DNA of 64,000 bases from positions 4,393,479-4,457,478 of the forward strand of contig NW_017802379.1 in the NCBI RefSeq assembly GCF_001625305.1, read 5' to 3'. The position numbers and the translations under genes are program-made. The notes beneath the pieces were generated by a model. That model was not told the DNA's origin. It did no database searches and saw only the letters and a list, made by a program, of their open reading frames with translations. The first letter of the stretch is position 1; every line of letters starts with the position of its first letter. Of this stretch, positions 1,026 through 49,449 are shown in pieces. This DNA comes from Branchiostoma belcheri. Taxonomy: Eukaryota.

Positions 1026-1145
1026 CTGAGATCGCTCTAGATTGAGCCTAACAGACAGGCCTTCTACCTCGGCTCGCAGACTGTTGTTCTCTGCCTGTGC
1101 CTTGGAGAGGGAAGCCTGCGTTTCTGACAGGGTGGATTGACCTTG
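1026..1145 (-). CDS. CLIP-like repeat exon (40 aa), last one resolved in window
   Basis: Encodes [40 protein letters not shown]. Acceptor is ctgagcag|CAA, donor CAG|GTACAA. No stop codon, so the gene continues beyond the window start. Confidence 0.7.
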
Positions 1146-10100: not shown

Positions 10101-13100
10101 TGCCAAAGTGTGGGCCAGAGCAATAAATATGTCTCTGTTTTATTTTGTAAAAGGTCACCACAACTGAAGCTTATGTTCTAGAAACTAGTCAGGCTAGGCC
10201 CTGCTCAAAGACTTCTAAAAGCTTACAAATTGAAAGTCACAAAATATGACAAAGTCACAAAATATGACTATTTTAGGCTTGGGTATGGCAAACTGAGACA
10301 AATAGAATATGTACCTCCAGATTGCCCTCTAGATTACTCTTCATGTTGCTCATCTCTTCCTGCAGCTTGTTTCTGTCAGCCTCCATGTTGGATAGCTTCT
10401 TCTGGAGGTCCTCTTTCTCACGCTGTTCTTGCTATTGTCAGGGATGGAAAAATGCCTTTTAAACATAAATGCATAAATGTCTATGGTGACAACATCAAGG
10501 TGGTAGCCAATCAGCACCAAGGTCAGAGATGACATCATCCAATCTGCAAAATGTTTGGGTTGACCAATCAGCACCAAGGACAAGAACAATGTTACAGCTG
10601 AGGTTTTGCACCTATTCTATTATTCAGTATTTTAAAAAAGTTAAAATTTACAATTTCAAGTATCCCAGATATACAATTCATTCCTTTTTTTGTCATCATT
10701 GCATCTACTGGTCTTTACAGAGAAAACATGACCAACCTCTGACTTGACTTTGAACTCTTCCTTCATGATTTCGATGTCTTTCTCCAGTTTTTGCTTAGCA
10801 GCCTCCAGCTCTGCAATTCTTTTCTGCAGACCACCGCTGTCCTTCAGTTGTTGCTGTTGAAGTAAACAGGTTTCAAATCAAAGTATGTACATATGTAACT
10901 GATAGAAACTTAAACAAAGCCCAAAGCTGAAGAGCATTTGAATGGTTACAAAAGAATCATTATCTGTGTAACAGAACATGTTTTTTGTTTGTTTTTCAAG
11001 GTAATTTCAAGGTGAGATTGTGATATGACTTTTTCTTTTCAATTCACTACTCTTAACTGTATTGCTTGCATATAAATAATTTTTGGTATGAGCCATCAAC
11101 AAACGAATGGCAACACAAGGCTCTTGTTGATTTGATTTAAAAAAAAACCTGTTGCTATTTTCAAATTTACATGATACAATGATGATGATTACATGACACA
11201 TGTTCAAGACTACATAGTGATACACACTTACCTGCACATGCACAATACACCTTTGATATCATGCAAAGTTCTACATCTAATGTACAGAGATGGAAAATCA
11301 AATCACACAGGACAGCAGATTGGGAGATGAAATGGTTTTCTTTATTGGTAAAGTATATGAAATGTTACATGCTGATGATATTTCAACAGCTTACTGCAAA
11401 ACATAACTCACCAGAGCCGTGCAACTACAAATGATGAGAAAAGATGAGGGGTACAGCCATCACAGGAAGAGGAATGTAATGCCATGCAGAGATATTGGCA
11501 GAAAATAATGCACCATGCAGAATGATGATGTATTACAGCAGATGACTTCCCATCATGCATCAGGGAATGACAGAACATGCTCTGAACTGCTCCCATCATG
11601 CAATAGTGACAGAAAGGCACATCAACCAAAAGACAAAAGAACAAACCGCTGTCTTCTCCTGGACTTCTGTCTTGAAGGAGGTCATCTCTTTCTGGAGCTG
11701 TTCGCGCTCAGTCTCCATCTCAGACACCTTGGTCTGAAGCTGTTCTTTTTCCGACCTTTCTTGCTATTAGAAGGAAAATGTTTAAGAAGCTTTAATACAC
11801 AACCTGAGTATCCTGAAACACAGCGATACACCTTTTCAAAAATGAATTTTGTAGGACGCATGCTGATCCAAAGAATGCACGAAGGTGGCGATTGAATGAC
11901 GATCGTACAACATATTTGATCTGGCTCTTACATGAGTGTCATGCAAATGTCACAATGTCCATTACTAGTTTTTAAAGCCCCAGAACATGGCCATACTGTT
12001 TTGCTTCACACAATGTAATTTTACTCTTAGTCTTGCGGTTTATAACTATTATGCCTTTGCGAAAAACTGACCTCGCATTTTTGCTCCAGCTCAGTTCTGG
12101 TCTCATCGAGAAGCTGCTGAAACTTGTGGCCGTCCTCTTCCATCTCTTTGACCCTCTTCTGCATCTCTGAGATGCTTTTCTTGGATTGCTATGACAGTTA
12201 GTTAGGAATTTAATTAACTGTTATTCCTGTGTTTATCACATTTTTTGGTTATCTTGGCCTTGCTACAGCATGATGGCATACTGTATTTGTTAGCACTTCT
12301 GTATGTAGTTTATAGTGCCTTCTGTCATACAGGGTAATACGCATACATTTTTGTTATTTTGATACTATGTCATTTTGTCATGCATATGTTGTCTTAATCA
12401 TTAGATATCCTTAGCACAAGGCCTTGTGCTTGATAACTGTTTCTAAAATGCTGTAATTCCCTACTATCTTAATTATACATGTTTTTACCTTTTCCTGGAC
12501 ATTTGCAAAGTTTAATGCAAATTCAGTAATCTGAAGCTGATACAGAGTTATACAGTATGTATCACCATTGACATGCATCAACGGTTATGTTGAATTGCCT
12601 GAACATGCAGATAGTCCTGACTACACCATGAGTAGCACAAGGATGTACCTTCTTGTTCTGAAGGAGTTCCTCGGAGAGAGTCTGGACCTCTGTGCGGTGC
12701 TTGTCCTTCTCGGATTCAAGCTCCACGACCCGCTTTTGGTACATCTCTGTCTCTCTCTTCTCTTGCTGTTGTGTGTGTTCAGTGGTGATGTAGGTGTGTA
12801 CAACAAGTTGTATAACAACCACATTGAATCACAGTGAGGTCTACAGTACCTCTATCAGCTTTGTACATACAGAGTGAGTAGTTAGTCTACCTTGAACCCC
12901 TGGCTATAAGAGGCAAGCCACCGTTCACATGGTTAAGAATGGTAATTCAATACCATAGAATGATATACACAGTACATCATTGCCAAGATCAAAGTAGTCT
13001 TGTATTTCTTGGATCAATCTTGACATCCTACATTACAGGAAAAGTTAAGACAGTGCAAGTGCACCAGAGTAAGTGAGAGTGCAAAAGTCTGTGTGTGCAA

Positions 13101-16100
13101 ACTTGTTAGCTTCCTTGTCGTATCTCCTCTGTTGCCCAAGCTGAGAGAAATGGAGACAAAGCATGACAGACTGTGTTAAGAACCCAGTGAGGCAGCATCT
13201 TGAGTGTGTAGACAGTGGAAAGAGAAGACTATCCACTACCCAGGCAAGCAAGGAGAGAGTGTGTGAGGCATCCAGTGTGAGTTACTGCATCATATATGGG
13301 CATCCGGCAAGAGAGAGTGTTGTAATGTGAAGAACTGCACTTCCACCATTATAAGCTGTGCGCTACCGAATCTTAATGTTTAAAGGACCATCCCCAGACG
13401 CGTGCTGTGAGACAACACTTGCGTGCTTCTTAAAGGTACGTAACGAGGGAGAACGCACCTGCACGTTCTCCTCAGCGTCCATCCAGAACTCCTCGAGTTC
13501 TTTGCGGAGTTTGGCGTTATCGGTTTCCAGTTGGGTAGCCCGCTTTTGGAACTGCGTTGTGCAGGGGTTAGGGACAGACGGGCACAGAAACAAAAAACGT
13601 AAACACAAGGAAAGTCTTCGATAAAAAAATTTAAAACTATACGGTGAGACTTCCATGCATATCAAAGGCTATATTTTGGTGTTATATTTATCATAATTGG
13701 CCGTTTATTTTGTGTAAAAAAATAACAGCATGCAGTACATGTAGATTATATACTCCAAGATGCACCATGCAGTTGTTAGAACTTACTAAATAGGGTCAGT
13801 TAGATGGGTCAACTGTTAGATGGAATTAACTGAATAAAACGTGCGTTATCCAAAAAAAGTGTGGGACGACGAGTCAGACTGTGGTTAGAGGGGGCTCTGC
13901 AGCATTATTGTCCCGTGCAGCTGTCAATCAATCAAGCAAGCCTTAGCAACAGGACTGTTGTCATGGCAACCCACAACCTACTGTTAGGTCATTGGAGGAA
14001 GCAGTGATTCAAACAGAGACACTAATGTCAATAGCATCTCTTGGGGAGGGGGGACAAGGCTGACCTTATGCCCCTACAGGATTGACCTTGAGAGATGCAA
14101 ACCTTGGCTTTGTCCTCGGCCTCCTCCTTGAGGTGTTCGACCTCCTGTCGGAGTTTGGAGTTTTGTTCCCGCATGGCGGCGAGCCTGCTCTGCATCTCAT
14201 CACCACTGGCCTTCATGGCCTGAGCAGTGTGGATGGACAGGTCACACTCGTCATTGGGAGAGAACAACTACAGTACTACAGGCTAATACAGCCTGAAATG
14301 CGTGTCATTTTCCTTAGTGTCCCAAAATGTCTCCCTGTACTTTTATAACTTTTACAGAGGGACACAGGAATACAACAACAGCTAGTGCCAAGTTCCAACA
14401 TTTCAACACATACATTGTACTGACCCTACTAAATATCCTATGATTGTTTAAATTGTTAGATTGTTATGTCTTTTTATTGACTTGTACATGTAGATACCTT
14501 CTTATCCTAAAGTTGGCACTTTGGGATTTGGCACTGCTTGTTGTTATTTCCATAGACTACAAGATGTAAAGAGCATTCTTTTTCCTCTTGATTAAATCTG
14601 ATTTAATTTTATAGGTTTACCCGGAATAAAATGTTAGCAAGACAATGACTTAAACATGATCATAGCACAGATCATCACATGAGGCATTACTAGTATAACT
14701 CAATTACTACCACTTTGATTATCTTTGAATAAGAAAGAAAAAAGGTTGATCATTAATCCTGTGGATGAAACTGAATTAAAGTAAACATTAATCTCTCTAA
14801 GAAACTGTGCGTATGATTGGTGTGTGCAGAGACAGACATGGTGTTAGAACTGAAAACAAAATTAAACTGTCAACATACGCATGTGTTGTGTACATACAAG
14901 GCCACCATTCACTCAACACCAACCGACACATACACAGAAATCTTTCCTTTTACACTGCACATACACACTGGTACAGAAACAAGTGAACTTTAGACACATT
15001 AGGATGTAGATACACACCAGAATCACACATTTCACACTTCCACACAGTTTCCTTTCCACCTGCAGTACCACTACAGATTGCAAGGAGGAGCACATTCACA
15101 CACAGGTGAAGTGACACATGCACACATGTACCTGATTCTTGTCTTCAGCCTGTTGTTTCAGGTTCTTCAGTTCCTTCTTAAGGTTGGTGTTTTCTTCCTC
15201 CATCTCTTTGGCTTTTTTAAGAGCCTATTGGCAACAACATAACAACATGTCCCTCCTATTAAAAGTACTTTCCTTACTATAGATTTCAAGCTTTGTCAAA
15301 GAAAGATGGGTTGAAAAGATTCATGTACAGATTGGGGCATTAGGGCATTTGGGCATTTGCATCTTTTTAAAAACTTGTAAAAAAGACATTCCTTCAAATA
15401 AGTTTAACTGTAAATTCAATTTTAGGTCCTAACTGTTCAATCAGTTTAGCCACAAGAAGTACTGTATATAACATCATTTATCAAAGACATGAGTTATTTC
15501 AATCACAGTTTAATATGACAAGTAAATTCATTATTTGAAGTACATATATATGACACTTGAATAAATACAAAGCATTCTAGCCTAAGAGAAGAAATGTAAG
15601 GAAGCTGTTGTGAGTGACATCTTCACTCTATATTCTACATTTAGAAGAACTGTGCAGACTGTGTGCAAGATTTGAGTTTCCTGTGGTGGAAAATTACATT
15701 AGAGGAAGAAAACATGCATTTGAGTTAGTATCACTGTGACAGAAACAGTGGAAAGATTAGTGACAGTTACTTCTATCTAACTTAAGCAGCTTTCTGCATG
15801 CTGGTATACAGAGTGCAAGGACAGTTAGATGTGCTCTTGACTAGACAGTGAAGCTCCTGTACAAGTCTTGGAGAGAAATATGCTTTTTAATAGATCTTGA
15901 GAGACAGAAGCTGTCAGTGGTGAACAGAACATAGCCCCACATTCGGCCACCAGAAGTGCTACATTAAGACCATAGCCCCACATTCGGCTACACCATGCCT
16001 CCCAACCTTGTGTTTGTCCTCGGCTTCAGCCTTGAACTCAGCCAACTCGTCAAGGATGCTGTTGTTCTCCTCCTCCATCTCCTTGAACTTTTTCTGGGAG

Positions 16101-19100
16101 ACCTCGACAAGGTACTCCATTTCCTGGTTTTGTTAAGGAGGGGGTTAGGGAATGACAGTTGTAAGCAAGATTATCAACTTAATCCAACGTAAAGCTTGCA
16201 GAAGAAAAAAGTTCCCAAACTTCCCTATTGTCTAACATCAGAATCTTTTTGCAATACTATGTAGCACTCATGCTTTGACTGACAAATGTCCATTATTTTA
16301 TACACTTAATTTTGCAGACATCGGTACATGTATTAAGCGTTTACCTTAGCCTTGTCCTCTGCATCTGTTTTGTAGGCCTCCTTTTCTCTCCTGATGTTGT
16401 TGTTCTCTGTGTCAAGTTCCGTCACCTTCCTCTGGGATTCGTTTAGCTCGTTCTTGATGTGGTCTCTGTTTAAAACGGAAACAATTGGTCATTAAAAAAA
16501 CTTGGTACTGAAACTCTTGACACAAATTGTCATTTTCTTAGACCTAGAAAGGTAACATTTTGGGCATCTCCTTTTTTTCATTTTCTCATGTACATGTAAG
16601 TTGAAAATGGAAGATAAAAAACACAAATGTACTGAATTTTCTTCACTGTTTTCTATATGACCTATATCATTATGTTAAAGTCTTTTCCTGTCAAACTCAT
16701 CTCACAAGTAAAGCTGCCCTGCAGTCAAGCATCACTAGGGGGCTCTGCTTGCAAAATCAATAGGTCTAACACAAACGTCATGTTTTAACAATGCTGCTCA
16801 CAGTGCAGCCGGTTACAGTTGGCTGACTCATATGTTGACTTATACTCATGACTGCCATAACAGTGAAAGTCAACTTTGCCCTTTTACCAAATATGGTGTG
16901 GGCAAAGTCCAACTTTCCCTTATTTTTAAAAAGAAAGCAGCATTATTATCATAAAATGGTAAAAGAACATTGAGGTTAAATTTTCATGAATTTTAGGAAC
17001 AGACCAAGAGGGATAATTTGTCCTTTTCATAATTCCGTGACAGTGCAATTCATTTCTTAATCTTTCTGTGAATATTTTTTTCTTATTTTCTTGCCTAATA
17101 CTTCATGGTCCATTTAATAAGAATTTGAAGTTGACAGCCATACACGTATTTATGGCAAATGCAACTGCTACAATAATCACCTGTACCCATTTAACATACT
17201 TGATTAAATATTAAACATACATATTATTTCAAAGTTTAAAAAAACATATAGGCTTTTTAAGCCGCATATAAGACGTGTCTATTACACATTCCATTCTTTA
17301 GTGTTATTCTGTCTCTACAACCTACATGTACCTTGCAGTTTGCAACAAGAGTGATGTATTTTTACTAAACTATTATCTAGACATACTGGTACTGCTACAA
17401 TGACGGTGCATACTGGCAACATTTTGGTCCATTCCAACCATGGTGTATTAGCTACAAAGAACTTTATCAAATTATTAGCTAGTTGAACAAGAGCGCACAG
17501 TCATTGAATGACCTCTCTGTTTCAATTATATATCTTAGTCGAGGTAGCACCTTCTTGCATTGGTTGTGTCTGTCATACTGGCCAGACATTTTGTTTACTG
17601 ACTAACGCAGCTGTAGTTCAGTGAACTACATTTTTATGCACAAGCAGTTTCTAATTGTAGCAAGTGTGAAGCTGCTATGATGTAGTGCTTTAAGTCTATG
17701 GCACTGTGAAATGGCAGCTCTAATTCCTAAGTATAAAGACGATCTATTACCGCTGTTCTTAATTACTTTTCTACACAAATGTGATGTTCATTTTTTCTTG
17801 TCTTTCTTGTCCTTTCCCTTGAAGAAGTTCAGCTTTAGTGATTTTGAAGGTGACTTTGAGGGAGACCTTAAACCCAAAGAACACACACAATGAAACAAAC
17901 TGACAGACTTGAAAAATATTGAGCAGCGTACTTCTTGACAATGTTCGGATTCAGAACTGAATGTCACAGACTCACGTACTACTCGGTTTAATGTCAATTT
18001 TTCCCCATCATATAAGGGGTAGTAGCAGCGTATTGTATATCTAGTCCATACAAAACAATTAATAGGAACTCACATTTGTTTCTGCATCTCTGCAACACTC
18101 TGAGCTCCCAGGTCAGACTCCTGTCTGCTCTTCTCCAGTTCCTGTTGAAACTTGACCAGTTCATCTTTGGTGGCTTGGAGCTGGGGACACAAGCACAGTA
18201 CATCATGTACAAGGCAAGCAATGACTGATAATCATTAGTCAGTATACAATGGACCAATTAAGACAACTGATTGAAAAATGTGAAACAAATAAGCCAGGAA
18301 GAATTGTGCAAGATGGAAATGGCCTAGCAAGACCCAAAATACCCCATGTAACATGGTTAGAACATTTGATAGGTCAGATGTCAAATAACATTTAAACTAC
18401 ATGTATCACCACATTTAGCCTTCCAGTCACCAACAAGCTCTGAACAGAACATGAGTTCTTCAAGACATTACCTCCTCTTCTAAGGCTTTAACCTTGGACA
18501 AGGCTTCATCAGTGGCTTTCCTGGCAGACTCCTTCTCTGCTGTGACTGCATCTTTCTCCTGAATTACTTGGACAAGCTTACCCGACGACTCAGTGGCAGA
18601 GTTTAGAACCTGATTGTTGTTTCCAGAGTTTTGCGTTTCCCGCCAGACGGATATTTCAAGGGAAAGGTATGGTGGGGTGAAGTGGACGAAAACAAACAAA
18701 AATAAACAAAAAGTCAATAAAACAACATTTAAGGAAACAAAAAATGCTTTAAGTTAGATTGTTACAAGATTCATGTTATTGATTAATAAGATCTGATGTA
18801 AAATAAAATGCACACACATTATCAATAAAATGTCAAATGAAATAAAACAACATAGAAATGAAAAAAAAAATTATGTTACAAATTGGACATTTGTCCATGA
18901 TACATATGTATTAGTAGGTCTGTGTGTTAGTTTGATAAGTATAGACCTAACTAGTACACAGGTTAAATTAAACAGGGATGAAAGGAACTTAAGAAATGGA
19001 GAATTCTGGACAGCCATTAAGTTTCCACATTTAATTGGGACTGTAAAAACATCTGACTTATTCAGTTAACTGTGAAAAAAATGCTAACTTCTAGTCTTCT

Positions 19101-22100
19101 AACCTTCTCCCTGCCAATTCACTGACTGATGTTGTACAAATCAGACAGGAGAATGTTAGTAACAACGTACATCTTGTTTTTCTTGGACTGCCTTCTCCTT
19201 CTCTGCCGTGAGTTCTTGTTGCTTGGTGACGGCTGCTTCTTTCTCAGAGATGGCAGTCTCCTTCTCCAGACTCAGCTTCTGTTTCTCTGCCTCAAGCTCC
19301 GCCTTCTCGGCCAGAGCTGTTTCTCGTTCCTTAAGAACGGCCTCGTATTGGGCCCAGGCCTTCTCCTTGGATTCCTATGGAATAACACAAAGTAGTACTC
19401 ATTAAGAACAAGAAATCAGAGACTAGCAGGAACTATGCAATCCTTGGCTTCCAGAATTAACTTATGTCAACCTCTAATTCCCACTGGCTCCAGTCATTCT
19501 GTCTGTCAATCTTCTCCCACCCACTTGCTGTCAACTTACTCTGTTCAGACAGTTAGAGATAACACAAACAGTTTCAATGAGATCTCTTCTTTAGCACGTG
19601 CATGGGTCTATTTAGATTATGTAGATGTTCTACACTTGCCTTAACACACCATACATTCAAAGCATGCCAATTGAGTTACGATTACCAATTTGAAGGTTGA
19701 GCTTAAAGTAAAGCAGAAGTACAAAATCCAGAGGTCACACAAAAATGATTTTGGCATATCCCACCTTAGCTAGTATACATACTGTGTTCTTCAGCAATAA
19801 GGAATCTTGTCTCAATTTTAACATGTATAAATATCAGCTTGAGGCTTACAGGAATTACAGAAGGAGTACATTTCAAAGAAAGGGCATGCTTCAATACACA
19901 GCCAGCTGTAATTGTCATACAATACTAGTTCATTGACATGATGCAAATAGCTGTTAGTACAATGCAACAGACATATCTAATCTAGTCGGGTTGCAGGGAA
20001 GCTTACAATGGATTTCTTACAGGTAGTTGAGACCAAATACATTTTAAAGCTGTTTGCAATTTTTTTATCACCATGTTTTCAGTTTGCTGTTATTTTAAAT
20101 TTTTCTTAACATTTTTTTTAATCTTTATTTTTCTTAAGGCTTTTTGTCCATATTTTGGCTGTTTTGTTTTATTTACGATTTTTATTGTGGCTTTTCATTG
20201 TAAATTTTTATTGCTTAAGACTTTTTGTAAACAATTCTATTTTTAAACTAGATTTTGTTTTTAGGCTGTCTTTTTTGTGGACATAAAGGAATATATAGAC
20301 CTTTGAGGTCGATTTTTGCTTGCTTGGTTTATGTTATAGTTGTTTTTCTCTGATATTTATCTTTTTTTATTTTCTGTTTTGTTTGATTTACATTTTTATT
20401 GTGACTGGTCTTCCTCTCTGTAGAAATCCAAACAACAAACACATGCTTAGTAAACAACATTATTATGTTCCAATTTCATACATCATACCATCCATATTAT
20501 ATCTTTCCAACTACATTCGTCAAGTCTCTAACCCTTTAGCTTTCTTAATAATATAACCATCTCACATACCAACTTATTTTTTTGTATACCAGGTCTAGTA
20601 CAACTTTGTGTGTACTTCCACCTTAGATTGTCAATCATGTTCCTTTAACCTTTTCTCAACATCACCTATCTTTCATCTTTCCATGTTCTTTCTCTTTCCA
20701 CTGTACTTTCTCATTCTCAACCCAACAATACTAATCATCTACAGACTGTCCCTTTGTCCATCTTCAACTTCATCCTTCAACCTTATGAATCTTCTTTTTT
20801 TTATTCCTCAAATTTGATGAGTTTCGTAAGTGATTCCCTTTTGGTCTTACCTCTGGAACAAATGCATGCAATGAACAAACAAAACATAGCAGATTATTTG
20901 AAGACATGCGTATCAAGCTCAGAAACACTCAGAACTCTCGAAATTAAACCACTCTTCAAGACTTTGAATTAGCCATTATCCATTGACTTTTCTTAGTTCT
21001 TTTTATTCCTTCTTTAAATATTTTTTTTCCTGATAAGGTTTAGCCACAACATTGGCATTATCCCAGGTGTCTTTTCTCTTATCATCATCATCTTAATTTG
21101 GACATCATTTCATGTAACTTCATTTTTACCTTGTTTGTTTCTTTGTTTGTTTGTTTGTTTGTTTGTTTGAGCTTTCATTATTTTCAACATTTGTTTAGGT
21201 CTTTTTCAAGAATAGTTCTATCTTCTTTTGATGCCACACATGTTGGAGTTTCATTTTTAAACCTGCATTCTGACCACACTGTGCTTTTCCATTTCTTTGT
21301 CTCTCCATAGCATGTTTCTTTTTCCTTGAAGTACGTTTCATAGTTTTCTGAAGTTACAAGTTGAAGTTCCAGGTTAGGGAGAGTGGTTAAACTGGGTATG
21401 TTACCCTTCACCCTGCCAATACCCTTTCTTTAGGACATAAATAAATCAATCTTTCGGTAGGCTTATGGTAACCAGACCCAGTCTGTGTAGGGGAGGCTTT
21501 TCTTCCTCTCTCAGTATGTGGAGGAGGAATCAATATGTTCTCTCTCCATGTTCAAAAGTTGGTTATAAAAGAAAAATAAAACCAACATAGAATAGAAAAT
21601 TTTCACCTTTAACAGGTGGACATACACTGTCCTTAAGTGTTGATTGGATGTTGGTACTTTCCACTTTGAAAAAGTGCTTACAGCAGCACAGGGTGCATGC
21701 AGAATACTTTAACCTTCCTCCTGCTGTGGATGGATCCATGCAACAAATTTGCATTGTTTAAAGGAGGAAATCAGCAGGCAAAGGCCTAACAGCCATCCAG
21801 GTGTCAATGGGGCAGATACAGTTACGTGCAGTGCCATGACAATTGTTTGTTCAGAACATGGCAAATGTCAAAAGCCAGGGCCAGTTCCTGTCAGTCTGCC
21901 TGCATGCACATCCTGTAAGCCTCAACACTCGGGCAAAAACGCCCGTCATCTCACTCTTGGACAGAAACAGGGATTGGTAGGGGCATCTTTGGAGACGTCC
22001 TCCCTCTTGCTCCCAGTTTTAAGACCACGATCGGTGTGGCCTTTCAAAATAAAGTCACAGGACATGACTTCAACAAAGGTTCTTCGAACCCAAAATCAAA

Positions 22101-25100
22101 TAGACTTCAAATCACACACAAACAGAGTGGTGGAACTTTGGGTTCATCAAAAGTTGTTTCAAACCAGTAAAGTCTGGCATTAGAATATGTTCAAACCAGG
22201 CTGAATAATTTCTTGTAATTCCGCCTAGGTTTGGGACTTGTTACAGGACCTGAGGAGAGGCTGGAATTGGAGGGGGAGTTGGGTAAACCGGCATTCCGAA
22301 TGGAGTGGAGCCATTTGAACTGTTTGTATTCCGTAGGAGATTCTGGTGGAGAGTTGGGAAGAGGAGGTAGGGGGGATTTCGGGGGTGGCGGAAATTTTCG
22401 CTTCTGGCCGGGGCTTCCTGGAGGTGATTGTATCACCGGAGACAAGACCTTTTTCGGCGGCCTCGGAGACCGCGGTCTACCATACGGGTATTTCAGGCAG
22501 AACGGCGGAGATGGCGGGGGAGAGAACTCCGAAATGGACGGGAGGAAATCCAAGTCTTTTGCGACAGGAATTGTCGACAGAATGTCGTCAGCCTTTTGTG
22601 AAAAGAGGTCTGGGAACGGCTCTTCAATTTTGCACTCCTTTTGCTTTTCAGGTGCTGATTTTGGCAGTTTGGAGCCTGCTGTCTCCATTTTAAAGTCAAT
22701 TTTTGGTTCTTTTGTTTCAGCCTTTATCCTGCTCCGAGGGGAGCGAGGGAGGCTGTTGGACTTTTGAGCCGGTGGGAGGACGTATGAGTAGTAGTGTTGG
22801 GGACGGTAGTACGGATCTGGAGTTTTGGTTCGGCGGAGGAGCGGACTTTTGCGCGACTGAGATTCTTGGAGGCTGCCGGGACACTTGGCTATCAACCACT
22901 GGGAAGAGAAGGTGGAGAGAGAAAGAGATGGAAGCACAGTGTTACTTAATGGACTTTTCTTTAGTGGAAACCAAGACACTCAGAAAGGAAAGAACAGAGA
23001 TGTACATATGGAAATGGCAGAAACGGGATGGAAAGTATAGGGAGAAGTTGTCTGACAGAAAGTCATGTTGACCTCAACACCTACCCAACTTTTTTCTTCA
23101 ATCTAGACGTTTTGCTGTTTTTATGCATTGCCTAAACAATGATGTTTATCGTTTTATACTTAAGGTTTGGCAGCAGCTTAGAAATGGTCCTAGTAACTTA
23201 AAGCTTGATTAATGAAGACAGCCTGTCTTCTTGTTAATTGTTTTAGTCAATATGTTTACACTTACCTGAGCTTTGTTTAATTTTATCAAAGCCTGTTACC
23301 ATCTGATTCAGTCCTTCTCAATCAAGCCATACTTCTTTGAACCATTATCTGGTAAAAGTGTAAATGGCCACATAAGCCAGTATATGTGAGGCTGCTTATC
23401 AATCAAGAACCACCAAGCCAATGAAGTTGTTTATGTCATAGATTTTGTGCTTATTGCATAAACTGAGCTCTTGCTTTAAAAAGTTAACAAAAGCTGTAGG
23501 ATGTCAAACATGGGGTTTCTATGTGGGACATGACTAAGGAAGAAAACATCAGTGTAGGTTCTACCAGGAGACCAACCTTCAGCGTGTCCCTCTCGTGCTG
23601 CACCTCCTCGATGGTGTGCTGCGTCTTCTCCTGGTGGTTGTTCAGTTCCTTCAGCTTCTTCTCCGCCTCCGCCAGCTTCCCGTTCAGGTCCGTCATCTCC
23701 GAGGTGCGCTTGCTGGTCAGCTCGTCGATCTCCTTCTGGTGGCTCTCCGTCAGCTTGCCGATCTTGGCGACGTGCTTCTGGACTTCGCTCTCCTGCGGAG
23801 GGAATGGCGGCGTGTCGTTGTTGCTACATGCTACTACATGACACCCCTGACTAGTAGGGACTTGTTGTTTTCTTTTTAGTGCTGTGTGTAGGAATTATCC
23901 ATCAATAGTAACTATCATGTATGTTACAGTTATTAGTCAGTAGTTATTGGGAAGAATCAAAGGGTGGGGACTAAGGTATTGATTCAGTATGGGAAGACAG
24001 ATTAGCATTGTGAAGGTAAAGATTTAGCCAAATTTAGAGGGAGGTCATGGGATAATCTTTTCCTTTTTCACTCCCAAAAATGGCATTATGATCTGTTTCT
24101 CAATCAAGTAAAAATTCTTTCCTTTAGTTTTGAACCTCACACAACTTAGTAGCTAGCTTAGAAGAAAATTACTGATGCTTGTCTTTGATATTTCATAATT
24201 CAAGAGAAATGACCTAATGATTCTTACCTTCAGGCAGATCAGCATTTTCTTCAATAAAAGCAAAACTTTTTTTTCTAATTCTTTACTAAAATGTAGTATT
24301 TTAGTTGCTAAACACACACTAACACTATCAATGTTGAAAAGTAAGCCTCTTTTATTGCAGTATTCACACTTTTCAGATAGATTGTCATACAGTTCATATT
24401 GCCTCTAACAATGTCATCCTCTGTTGGCACATAGTTCTTGCTACCTCTTACAATTTTTGACCATTTAATTCTATTTCTGAAAGTAACGAAGTTAATCAAG
24501 TCATTCATTTCTCCACACTTCTTCCTCGGTAAGACCTTTTCCTCAATCTTAAGCATCAGTGTATTCTTTCTACAGAAATGGACTTTATTTTGTTTCAAAT
24601 TGGAAAACCTCAGTCTGTTTTTGACATACCAAAGCTCGTAAGGCAACTAAGGTAGATGGCATCCCTCCTAAACCTTTCTCTTCAAAATATGACTACATCA
24701 TAAGTTACTGACAACCATTTTTTCATTATTTAAATTCTTAGATGGTTGCTTGCTTTGCTCTTGCATAGTAGTTCCTTGTTACGGAAACATTTAATACGAG
24801 CATGTAGTATAAATAGACTATTGCACGATTAGGACTATATCACGCAATACATGTACTGCTACTAGGTACATGTATGTATGAACATGTTGGAAAGACATCT
24901 GCCTCACAGTGCCAATTACTTCATCCACATACCCCATCACTCCTCCGATAATAGACTGATCCTGATTGTCCATCACAATTAGCGGATCGACCAATGACAA
25001 AGTAGCAATTATCGGTTTGACCAATGAGAGAGTGGCTACATTTCCATCAGATACTTGCATATGTATGTTTTGACGGAGGTGGGCAGACCTTTAGGATCAG

Positions 25101-28100
25101 TCCAGTGAGCCAATCATTTTCTTCTCCTGCACAACATCATATTATATGGCTACTCAACTTCGGAATCAATTATCATCATCAAAATCTGCAATGCTATCAT
25201 CACAGTCAACCTTACCTGAAGTAAGCTCTACCCAGGCTTCATCAATTTCTTTCTTAATAAGAAAATACTCCAGATATCAGAAACACTTACTGTAAATTGT
25301 GATACTTTCACAGTGTTCTTATTTTTGTGGTGACCTCGCTACCGCAAATTCCTTGTATTCCTTGTACTGTACTACAAGATTGTTTGAACTGTAAATCTGA
25401 AACTCTGTGAAAACCTCAATTTCTCTTCTTCAGCAAAATAAACCGCCGCAAAGGTTTCACAATTTACAGTATTCTTCTTCATACTATTGGTCATTCTTTC
25501 AAAAATCCCTCAGTACTTTAGAGATGTTCAAAAGTTTGATCATTTTGGCTAACATGGTTGCCATGACATGAATGATATTCTTGCTATAATACTGTATGGA
25601 TACGATGTTTTAAGGAGAATGTTTGGCAGATGTTTAAGGGTCCGTAATAAAGTGATTAGGAGGACTGTGTGTCCACTTAGCATAGCGTCCCTTCAGCCAC
25701 AAAACCAGGACATTCTGCAGCTGGGCCTGTATGGGACACAGTACAACAGAGATGGGGAGGGGGGGAGAGAGGACAGCCGTTGGAAAACACAGGGACCACC
25801 ACAAGCGTGTGCAGCAATGTGCAGTGTGTGAAGTACTTTGGGAAACCAAGCTGTACGCAGGACAACCTGAACTAAATTTGTAGGTTGTCCAACTTTTTCA
25901 TGAACTGGCTAGTCTCACAACTTGACTGTAATTGAGAAAGCCTGAGAAAAAGTTTACCGAATAAGGCATTCATGTTCGAAATACTAACTCAACGGACAGC
26001 AAAAATGTGAATTTTCAGGAAAAGTAAATCCATGGCTAGGACAACTGGGTTTCACCAAATACTTCACACAGTGGACATTTCAGATGTTAACATAACATTT
26101 ACATGTAAGTGATTTAGTCTGATAGAATTGGTGCATAACGAAAAAAAGATTGAAATATGGTATTGGTGTTTTCTTGATATTTTAGGTCATAGAAAAGAAC
26201 ACACTATTTAGGTATTGTCTACATTTTGAGGATTCTACTGACCTAAATACTGTCACAGATCTGAACTAAATAGAATTTAATGTTGTTTAGGCATGATTAT
26301 GTACATTAATCTCATTTGATGCAATGTTAAAGATTTTTATAAACATGCCTGTTTTGCTGAAGAATTTCACAAGTTTCACATGTATGTTTTGACAAAATAT
26401 CTGAATATTGGTAAAGAGCTTAATGGATATATTTAATCTTTTTCAGGCATGACATGTTCAATGTATTTCATGAAATGTGATTCTTTTTGTAAAGAAGCCT
26501 GATTTGCCAACTGAAGGGATTTTAAAAATCCAACAAGTAGTTGCATGTATGTTTTGACAAAATATGCCTGAGGATGGAAGTTTTGCAAACCAAATTTTAT
26601 GTATATTTTGCACATGTTAGCAAGGAATTGATTTAGTAGGCTGGGGTAGAAGGTGCAATGATGTAAGAAACCCAGGTTTAATTCCTGCTAGGAAGAATAT
26701 TAGTATGGAGGTATGGGTAGTGTACTATAGGACTGGTCAATTTTTTAAATTGGTTATTGAATTAAAAAACTTCCTTTGCTATTACCGGAATGTCATTGGC
26801 TCATACTTGTGTATGTGTGCTTGAAAGTGGGTATGCACACACATTTACATGAAAACAACAAAACACAGACTTAACAAGACTATTTCACATATTTTGGGGC
26901 ATAGATGGCACTTCTAGGGGACTAGACTTCCCAGTCTTTCTAGTAAAGATTTCAATGATTGTAAAAGTGAGGAATTATGCAGTATTTTACACTTCTGTAC
27001 ACAAGGAAGCCAAGACCCCATAAGTACCACCTGCAGTGCCAAGTGTGCATGATAAAACCTCACCATGTTCTGTAGCTTCTCCTGCAGGGCCTTGACCTCC
27101 TCCTGGTGTTTCTCCTGTGCTGAAGCAGCCTCCTGCGCTGCCTGCTCCTTGGCCTGTTTTGCCGTGTGTTCCAACTTCTCGTTATTCTGGTTGGCTTGGG
27201 ACAGGGCATCCCTCAGTTCTGTTATTTCTCTGATGGAAGAAATAAAACATTTGAGAGAAGAAACAAAGACGGAATACCGGTAGATCATTCTCTGTTAAAT
27301 GTTGAAAAAATCACAACAATGTGTCTAACACAATTAACAACTGTTAAGCCTGAGTGCACTTTGTTTTCCAAATTAGTACTACAGGCATCAGAATTACTAA
27401 ATTAAATGTATTTTACCATTTTAGTGGAAGCCATGATAAGCTGGCTATCTTTATTTGACAACCATATGTGGATAGTATTGAAGAAAAATGCTAGATATGT
27501 AAAGCTGATGTGGTCCACAAAATAGGTAGCAGCCTAATCAAATGTCATCTTTGTCTTGATGCCTGTCCTTAGTGCTGAAAAGCATTCAAGTCAATGGAAT
27601 AACATTTGCAGTCATGTTTGATAATTCTTATCCTACCAGGGAACTAGAAAGAATCTTGAAAGGAACTGTGTATATATTTTCTTTCAGAAGAACAGTAGTA
27701 TGAGATAAAATCATTTCTAATGCTAGAGAATGTTCCCTTTCCCGTTTCCACGACTCACTTATCCTTCTCCTTGAGTTGGTCGTTCAGCCTGCTCAGCTGT
27801 TGAGAGCTGTCACCAGAATTCTTCAGCATTTCCTCCTTCTCCCCCTCCTGGAAGAGAATGACAGTTACCTTCCTCTACTACTCATTACCATCTCTTACTG
27901 AAAAATTGCAATAAGCCACTTTACAGTTTGAACTGGGCATGCTTAGCGTGGTGCAATGTAGGCAATCTGTCAAAGTTGAAGTTCTGTGAGACAAAAGTAT
28001 CAAGCATGGTCTAGTCAAGAACTGTTTACAAGTAAGGCAAGATGAGCAAGTACATGCAAAATAAAACCAAATGACTCTAAAAAGATGTCAACACTTGCAT

Positions 28101-31100
28101 ACATCTAGACATTAGTAGTAGAGGTACCTAAATATAAACAGTGAGCATAGCGTTAGAAAGATTGTGTGCTGCTGGCTGAGCTAATGAAGCTGTGCACATC
28201 AGGTTAGTCCTTCAGTTGGAACTCATACCAGTTTGGCCTTGTCTGCAGTCAGCTGGGAAGTCTTCTCCTCTCCTGCCTTCACCTGACTCTGAAGCTCTGT
28301 GGAAACATACAAAAAGTACATCCAGTAAGTAGTTACAAACTACTGCTCTGTTTATTTCTATTATGGTGACCAGCCCCTCCAACTCTGTCTTGCAACTTGC
28401 TACATTATGTAACCCAATACCAAAGGGTGTCTGCTATAGCACCAGTTACCATGGTGACAGCCAAATATGAATGCCACAATGCATCTCCGAGACTGAGAAA
28501 ATCTGGTAATCACATCACTGTTTCACAGACATACAGACACATACATAATTCCCACAAAATATTCACACATGTAGCAATGTGAAAGGTTTGCAGAAGATGA
28601 TTCTGCTTCACTCACCAGCAATGGTGTTCTTCAGTTCCTGCATCTCCTTGTTCATGTTATCACTTGCCTCTTGTTTGCTTGCAAGTTTGGCATTCAGTTC
28701 TGTGAACAAAAAAATTAAATATTGTAACTGTGACAACTGTCTACATAAGGCAAGGAATACCAAGCCCAATATCATGTGAACTTGCCAAGTACAAAAGACA
28801 CTCTTATTCCTTACCTTCGATGACCTGATCTTGTTTCTGCCTCTTGTTGTTACCATCTTCAAGTTCTTCTTTCTGTTATCATGGAAACAAGAGAAGAGTT
28901 GAAGTAAGCTGTGTTGTATTTTATTTCTGCCATACCAACCTGAGAAAACTCACGTTTCAATGCAAAATGTGCTAAAATTTGGTCTCCCCGAACCAAAATT
29001 GTGACAAAATCAATTCCGTTGTTCAAATCCAGTTATTCAAATTTCTTAAAGCGGCACACAGCAAATTATTCTATTGAACTTTTGGAATCCCATGTGATAA
29101 TTTTTAAGACCCAGTGTAATAACCCAGATTATCACATGGGCTGGAACACCCACATCTGAACATTATCACGACCCAGGTATGACATAAACTAATTTAATCT
29201 TCTTCCTAATACCACCATTTCTTACCATCTCAGCCAGTGACTTCTCCAGTGCCGTCTTCTCCTGTGTGATGTTGTTGATTTTCCCCTCCAGTCTGGTGAT
29301 CTTGTCATCTCTCTCCTGGAGCTCGATGGCTGCCACGCTGGCCTGGGCCCCGCCCTCCACACTCTCACTCTCTAAGGCCTTGATCTTGTTTTCGGCCGCA
29401 TCCAGCTTCTGTGTGAGCTCCTCGATCTGCTCGAAGTACTCCTTACTCTCCTTCTCCAGGTCCGAGATCTTGGCCTTCTCCGACACACTGGCGGCCTGGA
29501 GTGTAGTCAGATAGCTTGTTTGTTAAATTTTCATATTGAATCAGATGTTTACCCATAGGATAAGGCCATATCAATTAAAATTCTTGGTTCTAGGATTCAC
29601 TCACTTAATTTTTTTCTGACTGGAAAAAAAGTACATGTACCTCAAAATGCTCAATATTTTGGCACCAACAGTTGAAGAAAGTCCTTGTCATTCTAGTTTT
29701 TCCATTTATCAATGCAGTGATTTGATTAGTAAAAGTCCAAAATTGTTTCATTTTTGATAAACCAGTGTGGTATGCTAAAGTTGTGGCTTCTATGGTGGCA
29801 TTTGAGGCTATCACAGGATGCTTAAGAATTTACCTGCCAGCTTCATTTATTTCATGTAAAGCTCCAAGAACCTAAGAACCAACAAATCAAATTGGTATGG
29901 CCTAACAAAGAATACACCATAGTTTGATCACTAACAGTTAAAAAAAATAGGTTGGTTTGATGATTCTGCACTACAGCTACAAGCCTCTAGCACATTTGGC
30001 TACATATTCCCCAGAGGAAACTAAGCAATTTTACAGTAGCACAAATATCCCATATAGCCCAACACTAAACCATAAATCCAAAATTCCATTTGAATTCCAG
30101 CAATCCTTTCCAAGCCATCACCATAATTCCTGAATTCCCAGCCAAACAGGTGTTTTTTATTTTACCTTCTCCTTTTGGAGCTGATCTTTCATAACCTTAA
30201 CAAAAGAGAAAGTGACAAGGAAAAAACATAATATTTGGTTTCAATACAACAAAGAGTACAAATATTAAACAAATTTTTAATCTTTCTCATATTTATCAAT
30301 TTTTACACTTGAACTATAGCTGCTAGGTAAACAATAGATTTCAGGGAGTTCATTGTACAAAAATAATTTTTTTGAGAAAGCTGAAATTTTGCACCAGTGT
30401 AATGTGAAACAGCAATCATGCCTGTGGCAAGCTGGCATGTAAAGAATCTCAGCATTTTTGTAGTAATTTCATGCCAGGCCTTAACTGCTGAGTTATCCAA
30501 AACCCACACAAATTCCACAGCCTCTCGCAAAACCATTTTTGTGTGAAAGCAGACAAACAGCTGAGCTAACAAATGAATGAAAACGTGACACTTGTTGCAC
30601 AACCAACCCCTAAAAATGCTGAAGTCTACATTTTGATACAACATATTACATGACTTTACACAAGTTTAACTATGACAGTTGCTACATGTATTAGATGACA
30701 AAACTGGTAGCTGGAGTGAAATACATTCTGCAAAAAATAAATGAAAAGTGAATGGAAAATAATAAAGAAAATATGACCTTCCTGTGGTTTGCTGTGAAGA
30801 TCAAAAATGTGCATAAATCATAAAAAACATACAATATAAAATAATAATATGAAAAACGAACTAAAAGGGCTACTATACACAGAAGATTAAGATCTGGAAG
30901 AAAGTTCTTCCCAGTTTCATAAGATTTTAGTACACAATGCTTTTCACTCTCTTCCTGTTGTGCCAATACTTGCACAATCAAATGTACACTTGCAGGGACA
31001 GACAGTTCAGTATTTCTCTTCTGGATATAGTAGTCTTTCTACAACAATGACAAAACAACATAATAAAACAAGGTGTGGAAATGTGGCAAACCAAACCAAA

Positions 31101-34100
31101 ATGAGAAAAAAAGTTGCGAATCAGTGCAGCAGTCAGTGTAAACCAAAGCAGCGGGCTAGTCTACAGCGAGATGAAAAAAGGGGGGAAAGCATGGAAGACT
31201 GAGTTAAGATCCCATTACCCGCGTATCCTCAAGCTCTTCCTGCAGTTTCTCGGCCCTGCGCCTCTCCTGGACCAGGGCGGCTTCTACTAGTTTCAAGCGT
31301 TCATGCTCCTCCCGGCTCTGTGTCTGTTAGTGAAGGCGGCCATGTGGTAGGCAAACACATGACAACAGGCATATCATGCAGGGTTTAGGTACGGGGGTGG
31401 TGGGGAGGGGGGCAGGTTAGTGTGAGAACTGGCCACAGAGCAGGTTTTTTTTCCCTTTATCTCACATCACACATTTAATTTCTGAAAATATTCTCTCAGA
31501 AAAAAATCTATCACAATAACAGTTTACCAACTCAAAATATCTTCAGGAATATAAAAAACTCATGGTTTTACATATCAGATACCAAAAAGAGTCAATTATT
31601 GTATGGACACCTGATTGAATCTATGCAAAAGCTCATATTTGACAAAACAGTTTCTCAGTATGATATAAATTTAACTGGCAAAGATGTTAATAGTTTATAG
31701 TGCATTACAAGTTTATACTATCACAACTGTTAAGATGCTTCTTTTTCTCAGCACCAATTGCCTTTTAGCCCAACTACTAGTTACCATAGACAATTTGACT
31801 GACAGCACCCCCCTCCCAACACATAAACGTAACACCCAGGAATTCTAACAGCATAACTGGGACAACCCCCTACAGACAGGAAAAATCCACAAATCAAAAA
31901 CCACTTTCTTAACCCCCCACTAGCCGTAACTACTATACACATTATACCTGTAGGCAGGGAAGGCCTATATCCCGCCTACATAGTGCTCTTGGGGACAGCA
32001 TTCACCCCTCTCCAAGTTGAAAGCCTGGGCCTCTATGGCATCCCTACGCTACCCTGTCTCTAGCCCTCTGTCTCTCACAGCCACTGACCTCTCACTACAG
32101 GCACAGGGGGCCTTTGTTTGCATGGGCAATCTTATATGGCATTGACACTAAGGGCAGCTACATGTAGGGACAGAAGATACCCCTCACAGTCATCTGCCTG
32201 TAATGCCCAGTAACAGATGCTTAGCTTGTCACGTTACATATTTTATTAGTCTAATTCAGGATATCAAAGCTTCAAAACTAATTAGGTAAGAAAAAAAAGG
32301 TAAAATTCATTTTACAGACATAGAAGCTCTGCTAGGTAGTGACGAGTAGTGAGGAATAATTTTAGACGCACGTCGTATTATATCATCGCATGCTTACATG
32401 ATGATTTCAACAGCTGGGTGGGTGCCAGACTTGGCGGCTTGCAGTGAGGGGCTAACCGTGACATTAGGGCATGGGGTGTTGGATCAACTGGGATTCTCAA
32501 TCAGTTCTATCTGAAATGACAGATGTCTGTCTTCGGTATGACAATGTAAAGTCTCCATAGTACAATGTAGAATTTTATGGACATTGGTAACATTTTGCTT
32601 AGTTGCCTCAATTTCTATTCGCCTTTATACATGTATATATATCCATTAGGCTACAACAATTTTATTTCTTGGTTAACGGATTTTTCTACAAAAATAATGG
32701 AGCGGGCGGGCGAAAAAAAATTAAAAAATAAAAACAGGCCTAGGCATCCTATTATGGCCCAAAATGGTACGATAGGAGCCACGAAGTCAACACACCAGCT
32801 AGGCTGGTTCAAAATTTAAACAATGAATTTTGAACTTTTAATGATACCATTGCATTGAAAGATGAAATAACTGCAACAACTAGGAAAAAAAGGACTGTTT
32901 TCAACTGTTCAGGGCAAAATATGATCATTTTGCAGTTGATTCTGAATTTTTATTTTTATTTGCAAATCAGAAAAAAATGAAGCGGGCGAATCCGTTAACC
33001 AAGAAATTAAATTGGTGTGGCCTTACCACTGACTTAAAGTCTTTGGCTACTGGTATTAACGGCTACTGCTGGAGAATACCCATGTAATTGACATTACATG
33101 GCTTGTATAAACTGACATATATAATACAATTTGCACACCAAACCCAAAGGTTTTCTGAAGAACAAAGTCCAGGATGTGTAGATGTCATTCTTGTTAGGGA
33201 GGCCACACCAAATTAATTTGTTGGTTCTCAGATTTTCAAAATACGCTCGAACTGAGAATCAAGTTTAGTGAACATAGTGTTATGAAATGAAAACAGCCAT
33301 ATTCTTTTTGTCTCCCTGCCTTCTAAGTATGAGTTTCCTATATTTTTTCCTTGACATATTCAAGAACCAAGGAAGTAAATTTGTGTGGCCCAATGATTAG
33401 CATATGGTTTGCCATGTACATGTAAAGGAGGTTCTGAGAAACCCCTGATAGAGGAGCCTGTCATCAACATCTCCAGTCTATATCTGGACACCTTGGCACT
33501 ACACCAGCAGTGAGATCATCCCAGCTAAATAACTGTCCTATGAGAGGCAGTGCTAATATTGTACACAACATCGGTGTGATGCAACGCTGTCTTTGCTGAT
33601 TGATTCTAGTAAACATTATGGCCTTCAATTAAAAATTTGAAGGTGAAAGGAGCTCATTTAGATATTGGTACGTGGTGTTAACATTTTATTTTCTACAAGT
33701 GGATTTTTAAAACAAATTTTAAAACATATTGTATCATACATTCTGAATTGACAGCTATAGCATAATCAATTTCACAAAAATTGTTAAGCAAGAACTTCAG
33801 TCAACAAGAATTTAGGTTGAATAGCCCCCAAAGTATTCCTCTTTTGGTATTTCTGGTCAAAGGTTAGAGGTACACATTGATGGTGAAAGGAGACCTTTTA
33901 ACTGGTATTGCTGGTTTTTACATTTTATTTCCTAAACTCTTGAGGTAAATTTAAAAAATCTATGTGTTCAAAAATAACATCTCCAGTTTAATTCAGTTTA
34001 CCCCAAAAATTGTTAAGCCTAATTCAAGTTGAAGAGGATGAAAAAATGTTCCTGTTTGGTATTTCTGGTCAAAGGTTAGATCTCTCCCCAGCCCTATTCC

Positions 34101-49351: not shown

Positions 49352-49449
49352 TCACTTGTAGTGGATGACAGAGGTGGAGAATAACAGCTTCTTTTTATTT
49401 TTGTTCTTCTTCTTCTTTCCTCCTGATGTCTGGGCTTCAGTTGATGCTT
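49352..49449 (-). CDS. RNF10: RNF10 exon 18 (terminal coding exon, stop 49352-49354)
   Basis: Encodes (E)[31 protein letters not shown]-stop. Compare the human C-terminus [25 protein letters not shown]. Acceptor is ttcacag|AA. Confidence 0.85.

Follow-up and report, generated by a model that had tools for sequence, protein, structure and literature searches.

An old tandem array of 39-residue exon modules probably extends the rod of a CLIP1-like gene in Branchiostoma belcheri, along which exon composition varies as a continuum

The 64,000-nt stretch of the Branchiostoma belcheri genome analysed here (RefSeq assembly GCF_001625305.1, contig NW_017802379.1, positions 4,393,479 to 4,457,478; hereafter the window) carries on its minus strand what is, judged by its sequence, a CLIP1/CLIP-170-like gene predicted to encode a microtubule tip-tracking protein. 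Most likely, exons encoding the distal end of its rod were amplified in tandem long ago, and one or two of its upstream exons carry an unusual G/C bias at synonymous sites. We give a probability of roughly 60% to the reading that the compositional differences among its exons are a continuum with several ordinary causes and that its array of 39-residue repeat exons is ancient and lineage-specific. An earlier note on the same DNA had instead proposed a two-class mosaic within one gene, in which an AT-rich repeat array with a different mutational or methylation history was grafted, as a younger expansion, between GC-rich ancestral coiled-coil exons. The compositional observation is partly confirmed, and the graft interpretation holds in part, in that ancestral exons and a lineage-specific array do coexist, but composition is no mark of a recent graft.

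A CLIP1-like gene with a long coiled-coil rod

Exons were assembled manually on three criteria (absence of stops, splice-site consensus and continuity of phase), giving a model of 51 exons in the window (E1–E51; 41037 to 1026 on the minus strand, with the ATG at 41037). All 51 have AG/GT borders, and joined together they form a frame of 6,531 nt (2,177 codons) that is free of stops; the five intervals singled out as GC-rich in the earlier note are exact exons of this frame (E10, E16, E17, E23 and E24; see Table 1). An open reading frame (ORF) at 37180–37452 was dropped as an exon because a usable donor is missing, and for E18 the alternative boundaries 18493–18609 are equally possible. The window has 39.6% GC and a CpG observed/expected ratio (o/e) of 0.34, and is eukaryotic.

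The predicted protein has two N-terminal CAP-Gly domains (Pfam PF01302, 174.5 bits), as expected of the CLIP1 family, and its GKNDGSVAG motifs align with those of CLIP1 orthologues. The best full-length matches were to CLIP1-like proteins from Lineus longissimus, Ptychodera flava and molluscs, with 33–37% identity over about half of the query, and a single BLASTP high-scoring segment pair covers residues 5–1174 of the model against Ptychodera and 6–1106 against Lineus at 36–37% identity. The stretch collinear with hemichordate, nemertean and mollusc CLIP1 spans E1 to E24/25 and includes the long coiled coil typical of the family, and the claim that the exons upstream of about 13459 belong to the ancestral CLIP coiled coil was thus borne out (collinear from residue 5 to about 1115–1174). 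Vertebrate CLIP1 proteins (shark, passerine, chicken) are collinear with the model over the N-terminal ~510–640 residues only, at 44–47% identity (45–48% when reckoned over the N-terminal quarter), with offset and weaker matches beyond. A tblastn search with the C-termini of four CLIP1 proteins found no match within the window to the C-terminal FLNSVIVDLQRKN region, the zinc knuckles and the acidic-aromatic tail (ETF) typical of the family, which indicates that the gene runs on beyond position 1 and that its C-terminal exons lie outside the window.

The lancelet gene resembles vertebrate, hemichordate, nemertean and mollusc CLIP1 in its N-terminal motif, two CAP-Gly domains, Ser-rich linkers and long coiled-coil rod. 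It differs from them in that the rod has at least 26 added 39-residue modules (about 1,000 residues) ahead of the C-terminus. In exon 1, a 21-nt tandem repeat (40847–40947, minus strand) encodes an Ala/Gly/Lys-rich stretch directly after the conserved N-terminal motif.

The array of 39-residue exons

All exons of the core array (E25–E50) are in phase 0/0 with AG/GT borders and 23 of the 26 are exactly 117 nt long, the equality of length and phase expected of tandem exon duplication. They are separated by introns of 116–956 nt. At 9304–9709 (minus strand) two units are carried by exons of 147 and 87 nt with the intron displaced by 30 nt, and at 6881–7018 (minus strand) a single 138-nt exon has its donor shifted downstream by 21 nt. 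In both places intron sliding or the loss of a donor has altered a 117-nt pattern that is rigid elsewhere in the array. Several of the array introns (7644–7753, 8752–8950 and 10490–10599) share a short interspersed repeat, which has the core GTTGACCAATCAGCACCAAGGACA, resembles a miniature inverted-repeat transposable element or a short interspersed nuclear element, and accounts for the repeated appearance of 'GADWL/LIGQ' pseudo-ORFs.

Gap-free alignment of the units gives the consensus QxxxExxxLQxxxxExExEKxxLxxxxxxxKxExExKxK, with a hydrophobic core at unit positions 9, 13, 16, (20), 23, 27, 30, 34 and 38. The dominant core period of 3.545 equals 39/11 and is that of a coiled coil in which every unit contains a single stutter. 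The 39-residue autocorrelation of the model protein is 0.21 overall and at most 0.36 locally, against a background of 0.10. Homology between units goes beyond shared composition, as they are 40–62% identical in nucleotide sequence in register compared with 24–37% for a control exon, E18. By codon position, in-register identity is 0.48 (first), 0.61 (second) and 0.34 (third), and it follows that the units are genuine coding exons under protein-level constraint.

A hidden Markov model (HMM) built from E25–E50 scores 724 bits on the whole model and 28–47 bits per unit. It also scores weakly on E20–E24 (7–20 bits), in register with the exon ends, and this indicates a gradual passage from the distal part of the ancestral rod to the array, with E23 and E24 as members of the repeat family. 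At the nucleotide level, E21 is 33–53% and E23 37–50% identical to array units (mostly 40–57% across E21/E23), with low values against E47–E48 (33–38%), compared with 24–37% for the control E18. The equation of GC-rich exons with non-repetitive exons of other lengths consequently fails, since the HMM register makes E23 a 39-residue unit and E24 a truncated one. Nor does the geometry of the proposed graft hold: the mosaic was placed within 13459–29495, but the core array at 2105–12765 lies mostly outside this interval, and rather than sitting between the GC-rich exons it is downstream of all five, grading in through E20–E24. In the reading we favour, the gene is a cephalochordate orthologue of CLIP1/CLIP-170 in which E1–E19 would represent the ancestral part (N-terminus and coiled coil), E20–E24 diverged units of the 39-residue module and E25–E50 26 well-kept tandem copies, which would together lengthen the rod by about 1,000 residues.

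Tandem arrays of symmetric cassette exons are known from long structural proteins, as in the repeated exons of the titin PEVK and nebulin type. The lancelet array is like these in having homologous exons of equal length and the same phase, each encoding one structural module, with conserved intron positions at the module borders. It is unlike them in that its modules are 39-residue coiled-coil segments with a 39/11 period in a microtubule plus-end tracker, and in that their alternative use is putative. Tandem exon duplication was reportedly treated by Letunic, Copley and Bork in 2002; our own literature search for CLIP-170 combined with tandem exon duplication found nothing.

The array is lineage-specific and probably old

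No 39-residue periodicity was seen in 240 retrieved CLIP homologues, and the array-unit HMM had zero matches in the 14 homologues tested, even at E = 10. The absence of the array from the CLIP1 proteins of other phyla indicates that it is lineage-specific. An exhaustive profile search of 1.84 billion representative proteins recovered a sole true relative, the two-unit fragment XP_019614194.1 from B. belcheri itself, and nothing scoring above 94 bits, compared with 724 bits for the model. The first 71 residues of XP_019614194.1 are 95–100% identical to E45 plus E46 (3462–4025 in the window) and the remainder belongs to another gene with linker-histone and GKAP domains, which means that this RefSeq model, combining two CLIP1 array exons with a linker-histone/GKAP gene, is chimeric. 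An amphioxus CLIP1 protein was not retrieved by any of the protein searches made. Apparently, the array is unannotated in public protein sets, where the chimeric model is its only trace. A word-indexed search with the array alone gave no match at E ≤ 1e-5, although this is a weak negative as candidates were probably swamped by generic coiled-coil proteins.

Lineage-specific does not here mean recent. The 40–62% identity range of the unit pairs is exceeded by E48/E49 only, the maximum at 74%, with E47 being 58–62% identical to these two. Third-position identity among units is 0.336 against 0.281 by chance, and where two codons specify the same amino acid the value is 0.534, compared with the 0.479 that codon usage predicts. 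Units far apart are scarcely less alike than neighbours (identity 0.508 at lag 1, 0.468 at lag 8), and the closest relative of a unit is usually many units away. A DNA repeat search detected just the E47–E49 exons, with 4 nt on each side, and found no intron similarity among array units. The high identity expected of a recent expansion, extending to synonymous sites and flanking introns, is therefore not seen. The CpG o/e of the array is at the level of the introns, which implies long exposure to CpG decay and is the opposite of what a recent arrival would show. We consider it probable that the rod was extended by a tandem amplification of exons that is old and specific to the lineage, and not by a recent graft.

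Exon composition varies as a continuum

The five exons are indeed GC-rich (GC 0.52–0.60, CpG o/e 0.52–1.04; the array means are 0.46 and 0.20), but the preference for G/C-ending codons attributed to all five does not extend to E17, where the GC content at third codon positions (GC3) is 0.59 and equals the gene average. Similarly, the N-terminal exons are GC-rich as claimed (GC 0.57–0.59) and E2 has 52 CpG (o/e 0.99), yet E1, with a GC content of 0.59, has a GC3 of just 0.29 and uses mainly A/T-ending codons. GC3 varies among exons beyond sampling (chi2 = 160, 50 df, p = 2e-13) and continues to do so when E1 and E16 are left out (p = 1e-4), and E10 is a GC3 outlier by comparison with the gene GC3 of 0.61 (binomial P = 3e-5). 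However, the two-class mosaic does not survive the test that the earlier note itself had suggested, as per-exon GC3 bimodality was computed and is absent. For GC as well as GC3, a single Gaussian is preferred by the Bayesian information criterion and the bimodality coefficient (0.47 and 0.29, respectively) is below 0.555. Per-exon GC and CpG form a continuum with one extreme outlier exon, E16, and not two age classes.

Our comparison of classes was set a priori as array versus non-array exons; testing five hand-picked exons against the rest would be circular. The two classes differ in GC (p = 2e-4), in GC at codon positions 1 and 2 (GC12; p = 0.002) and in CpG o/e (p = 0.002), with no significant difference in GC3 (Mann-Whitney U test, p = 0.21), and the array GC3 of 0.575 is matched by a mean of 0.58 in the 20 non-array exons that had not been flagged as GC-rich. 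When codons are pooled, GC1/GC2/GC3 is 0.62/0.273/0.678 in E5–E24 and 0.569/0.234/0.575 in the array, and this GC3 gap (p = 8e-6) shrinks to 0.624 versus 0.575 without E10 and E16 (p = 0.054). Non-repeat exons can also be as GC-poor as the array (E6–E8, E11, E12, E18 and E19). Roughly three quarters of the difference in total GC between the two classes can be traced to codon positions 1 and 2 and hence to amino acid composition, with the array richer in Glu, Lys and Gln and having half as much Ala.

The array is not built from GAA, AAA and CAA as had been supposed: its majority codons are GAG (58% of Glu), AAG (63% of Lys) and CAG (57% of Gln). The corresponding shares in the 20 unflagged non-array exons are 59%, 58% and 71%, so that Glu and Lys codons are used alike and only the Gln value is lower in the array. 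The clearest difference between the two classes is CpG. Codons of the NCG type account for 5/179 in the array and 42/291 elsewhere (p = 2e-5), and many exons upstream of the array have a CpG o/e of 0.4–1.0. Synonymous usage in the array is close to that of the other ordinary exons of the gene, which speaks against the suggested difference in mutational history.

These differences probably have several ordinary causes. Units rich in Glu, Lys and Gln and poor in Ala, Gly and Arg would lower GC at codon positions 1 and 2, and CpG in a weakly constrained array would have decayed to the intron level, presumably driven by germline gene-body methylation. GC3 is also lower within 15 nt of splice junctions than deeper in exons (0.55 vs ~0.65, and the same inside the array), which penalises short exons; such small-exon effects would contribute to the composition of the array. 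Exon length was rejected as a cause of GC3 (rho = 0.20, not significant), as was conservation as a cause of high GC3 (rho = −0.27, not significant; E16 is ~26% identical to other phyla).

We also weighed the view, in the spirit of the earlier note, that AT-richness and CpG-poverty reflect a mutational and methylation history that is shorter than, or distinct from, that of old GC-rich exons. It would accommodate the absence of the array from CLIP1 of other phyla, which is the part of the younger-expansion claim that stands, along with the lower CpG o/e, the pooled GC3 gap and the fact that the most similar and hence youngest units, E47–E49, have the lowest GC3 (0.36–0.46). Against this, GC and GC3 are not bimodal, array GC3 matches the unflagged non-array exons, the units are close to saturation at synonymous sites, their introns are unalignable, CpG at intron equilibrium needs long exposure, and the GC-rich E23 is itself a repeat unit. 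We regard a compositional difference of this origin as very unlikely.

A different possibility is that composition follows inclusion level, with E10 and E16 constitutive and the phase-0 array exons used as cassettes in only some transcripts, under weaker selection for G/C-ending codons and against CpG loss. Symmetric 117-nt exons in phase 0/0 can be skipped without a frameshift, synonymous CpG in the array is at the neutral level, and annotated isoforms are numerous (up to X19) in the CLIP1-like genes of other invertebrates. But E6–E8, E11 and E12, which are conserved and presumably constitutive, have GC3 values as low as those of the array, and we think that inclusion level is rather unlikely to be the explanation. 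A related suggestion, which we hold to be distinctly improbable, is that the 117-nt exons are singly skippable modules giving CLIP-170 rods of graded length, and that synonymous composition reports inclusion level.

Exon 16 and the island in intron 16

E16 is the extreme of the continuum. Its codons end in G or C in 70 of 72 cases (P = 4e-13), all of its four-fold sites (24/24) are G/C, and it holds the sole 40-codon stretch with a GC3 of 1.0 in the window. Nearly all of its 17 CpG involve a synonymous third position, and positions 1 and 2 are ordinary (GC12 0.42). It is flanked by the two longest introns of the gene (3,271 and 4,202 nt), and composition changes in a sharp step at its borders. 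Although poorly conserved, E16 has its homologue in the CLIP1 rod of other phyla and is therefore not foreign. RNA structure within E16 was rejected, the folding energy being the same as that of shuffles (z = −0.02), and the window contains zero Rfam families. Antisense coding was also rejected: no stop interrupts any of the three plus-strand frames, as is normal for GC3-rich DNA, but the peptides are nonsense.

Discrete islands 200–850 bp in length and rich in GC and CpG are found at exactly E16, 22.2–22.95 kb, E10, E24 and E2, and the island at 22201–22950 is 600 bp from E16. These might mark local hotspots of GC-biased gene conversion or small unmethylated islands. The intron beside E16, and up to the 22.2-kb island, is however AT-rich and CpG-depleted (GC 0.37, CpG o/e 0.15), and E16 is altered at third positions only, whereas a regional neutral process would ignore codon position and exon borders. 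We see little chance that hotspots or islands are responsible. Restriction of the bias to a codon position and to the exon itself argues for exon-limited selection instead. Because composition shifts sharply at their borders, we infer the same for a few longer exons between long introns, above all E16 and E10, which carry a surplus of G/C-ending and CpG-containing codons; selection might act there on codon choice or on exon definition.

Exon definition could be seen as an explanation in its own right, in which a high GC content is maintained in exons that lie isolated among long AT-rich introns, so that they stand out, through nucleosome or splicing-factor marking, and packed array exons are exempt. 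Flanking intron length does correlate with GC (rho = 0.49, p = 2e-4) and with GC3 (rho = 0.34, p = 0.015), E10 and E9 adjoin introns of 1.7–3.5 kb in addition to E16 lying between the two longest, and the exon-minus-flank difference in GC is 0.22–0.24 for E16 and E10 compared with ~0.11 in the array; the sharp steps at exon borders fit too. Yet E17, E8, E15 and E19 also adjoin long introns and have GC3 values of 0.50–0.69, the correlation is lacking inside the array, and the principle is known from vertebrates and applied to amphioxus by analogy. This makes exon definition a possible but still unlikely general account of the differences.

Differential GC between exons and introns and codon patterns near splice junctions have been described genome-wide in vertebrates and Drosophila. 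The lancelet gene follows these patterns, its exons being GC-richer than the AT-rich introns, most so at long introns, and GC3 being lower near junctions. It departs from such surveys in being one gene with moderate correlations, and in the GC3 of E16, which is beyond the usual effect size. The exon–intron architecture is said to have been set out for vertebrates by Amit et al. in 2012, and reduced codon bias near junctions was reportedly shown by Parmley and Hurst in 2007 and by Warnecke and Hurst in 2007; a literature search on amphioxus codon usage found nothing relevant.

The island at 22201–22950 is 750 bp long, with a GC content of 0.52 and a CpG o/e of 0.81, and coincides with a Pro/Ser-rich ORF (Table 1). 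This ORF has no Pfam match and no codon-position GC periodicity. From its sequence, the segment at 22437–22898 (462 nt, phase 0/0, AG...GT) could be a candidate cassette exon inserting a disordered segment.

Other features of the window

The coordinates of the exon groups and other features are collected in Table 1. Upstream of the CLIP1-like gene, at about 49300–55100 on the same strand, there is an adjacent gene with an RNF10-like RING finger. In human, RNF10 and CLIP1 are both located at 12q24.31, and the neighbourhood may represent a conserved linkage.

Table 1. Positions (1 to 64,000 of the window) and composition of features of the CLIP1-like gene
Feature	Position	Strand	Description	Composition
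E1–E4	38219..41037	-	N-terminus, two CAP-Gly domains, Ser-rich linkers	GC 0.57–0.59
E5–E9	31219..35824	-	ancestral coiled-coil rod begins (EALKEKQQH...); aligned to Ptychodera and Lineus CLIP1	
E10	29226..29495	-	270 nt	GC 0.57, GC3 0.81, CpG o/e 0.54
E11–E15	27064..28872	-	ancestral rod including a conserved motif	GC3 0.42–0.72
E16	23577..23792	-	216 nt	GC 0.60, GC3 0.97, CpG o/e 0.89
Stop-free ORF	22191..22979	-	262 aa, Pro/Ser-rich, in the 4.2-kb intron 16 (E16/E17)	
E17	19171..19374	-	204 nt	GC 0.52, GC3 0.59 (gene average), CpG o/e 0.52
E18–E19	18074..18588	-	ancestral rod	GC 0.49, GC3 0.51–0.54
E20–E24	13459..16465	-	121, 117, 93, 117 and 93 nt; diverged repeat-family units ending ...AEDKxK	
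E23	14103..14219	-	117 nt	GC 0.59, GC3 0.77, CpG o/e 0.60
E24	13459..13551	-	93 nt	GC 0.54, GC3 0.71, CpG o/e 1.04
E25–E50	2105..12765	-	core tandem array, 26 consecutive 39-aa units	GC 0.38–0.55 (mean 0.46), GC3 0.36–0.79 (pooled 0.575), CpG o/e mean 0.20
E51	1026..1148	-	123 nt, final exon before the window end	
Introns				GC 0.371, CpG o/e 0.24

Discussion

A number of our results weigh against an ancient array in a continuum of ordinary causes. Within the array, GC3 decreases in the 5'-to-3' direction (rho = −0.52, p = 0.006) and the youngest units, E47–E49, are the most AT-rich, the one pattern that leans towards a young array, although these three exons are non-independent observations. 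The GC3 of 0.97 in E16 is without quantitative explanation by any of the causes listed. The correlation with intron length is only moderate overall and vanishes inside the array (rho 0.05–0.10), and GC3 has no significant relationship with cross-phylum conservation. The CLIP1 model, finally, was built by hand from sequence alone.

As it stands, the compositional mosaic appears to be mostly ordinary, a product of amino acid composition, CpG decay and known exon-level effects, and it should not be taken as a sign of a recent graft. Should the array exons turn out to be skippable modules after all, then constitutive exons, E16 among them, would experience strong exon-limited selection and retain CpG, rarely included array exons would drift to a neutral, CpG-depleted state, and the array would be a cephalochordate-specific and hitherto unannotated elaboration of a core microtubule plus-end protein. 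Selection that acts on synonymous sites within the limits of an exon can be tested cleanly with E16, whose CpG-retaining codons nearly all end in G or C amid an AT-rich and CpG-depleted gene body, the effective population size of the species being very large, and an ancient rod extension of about 1,000 residues made of 39-residue exon modules would bear both on gene annotation and on the evolution of coiled-coil length.

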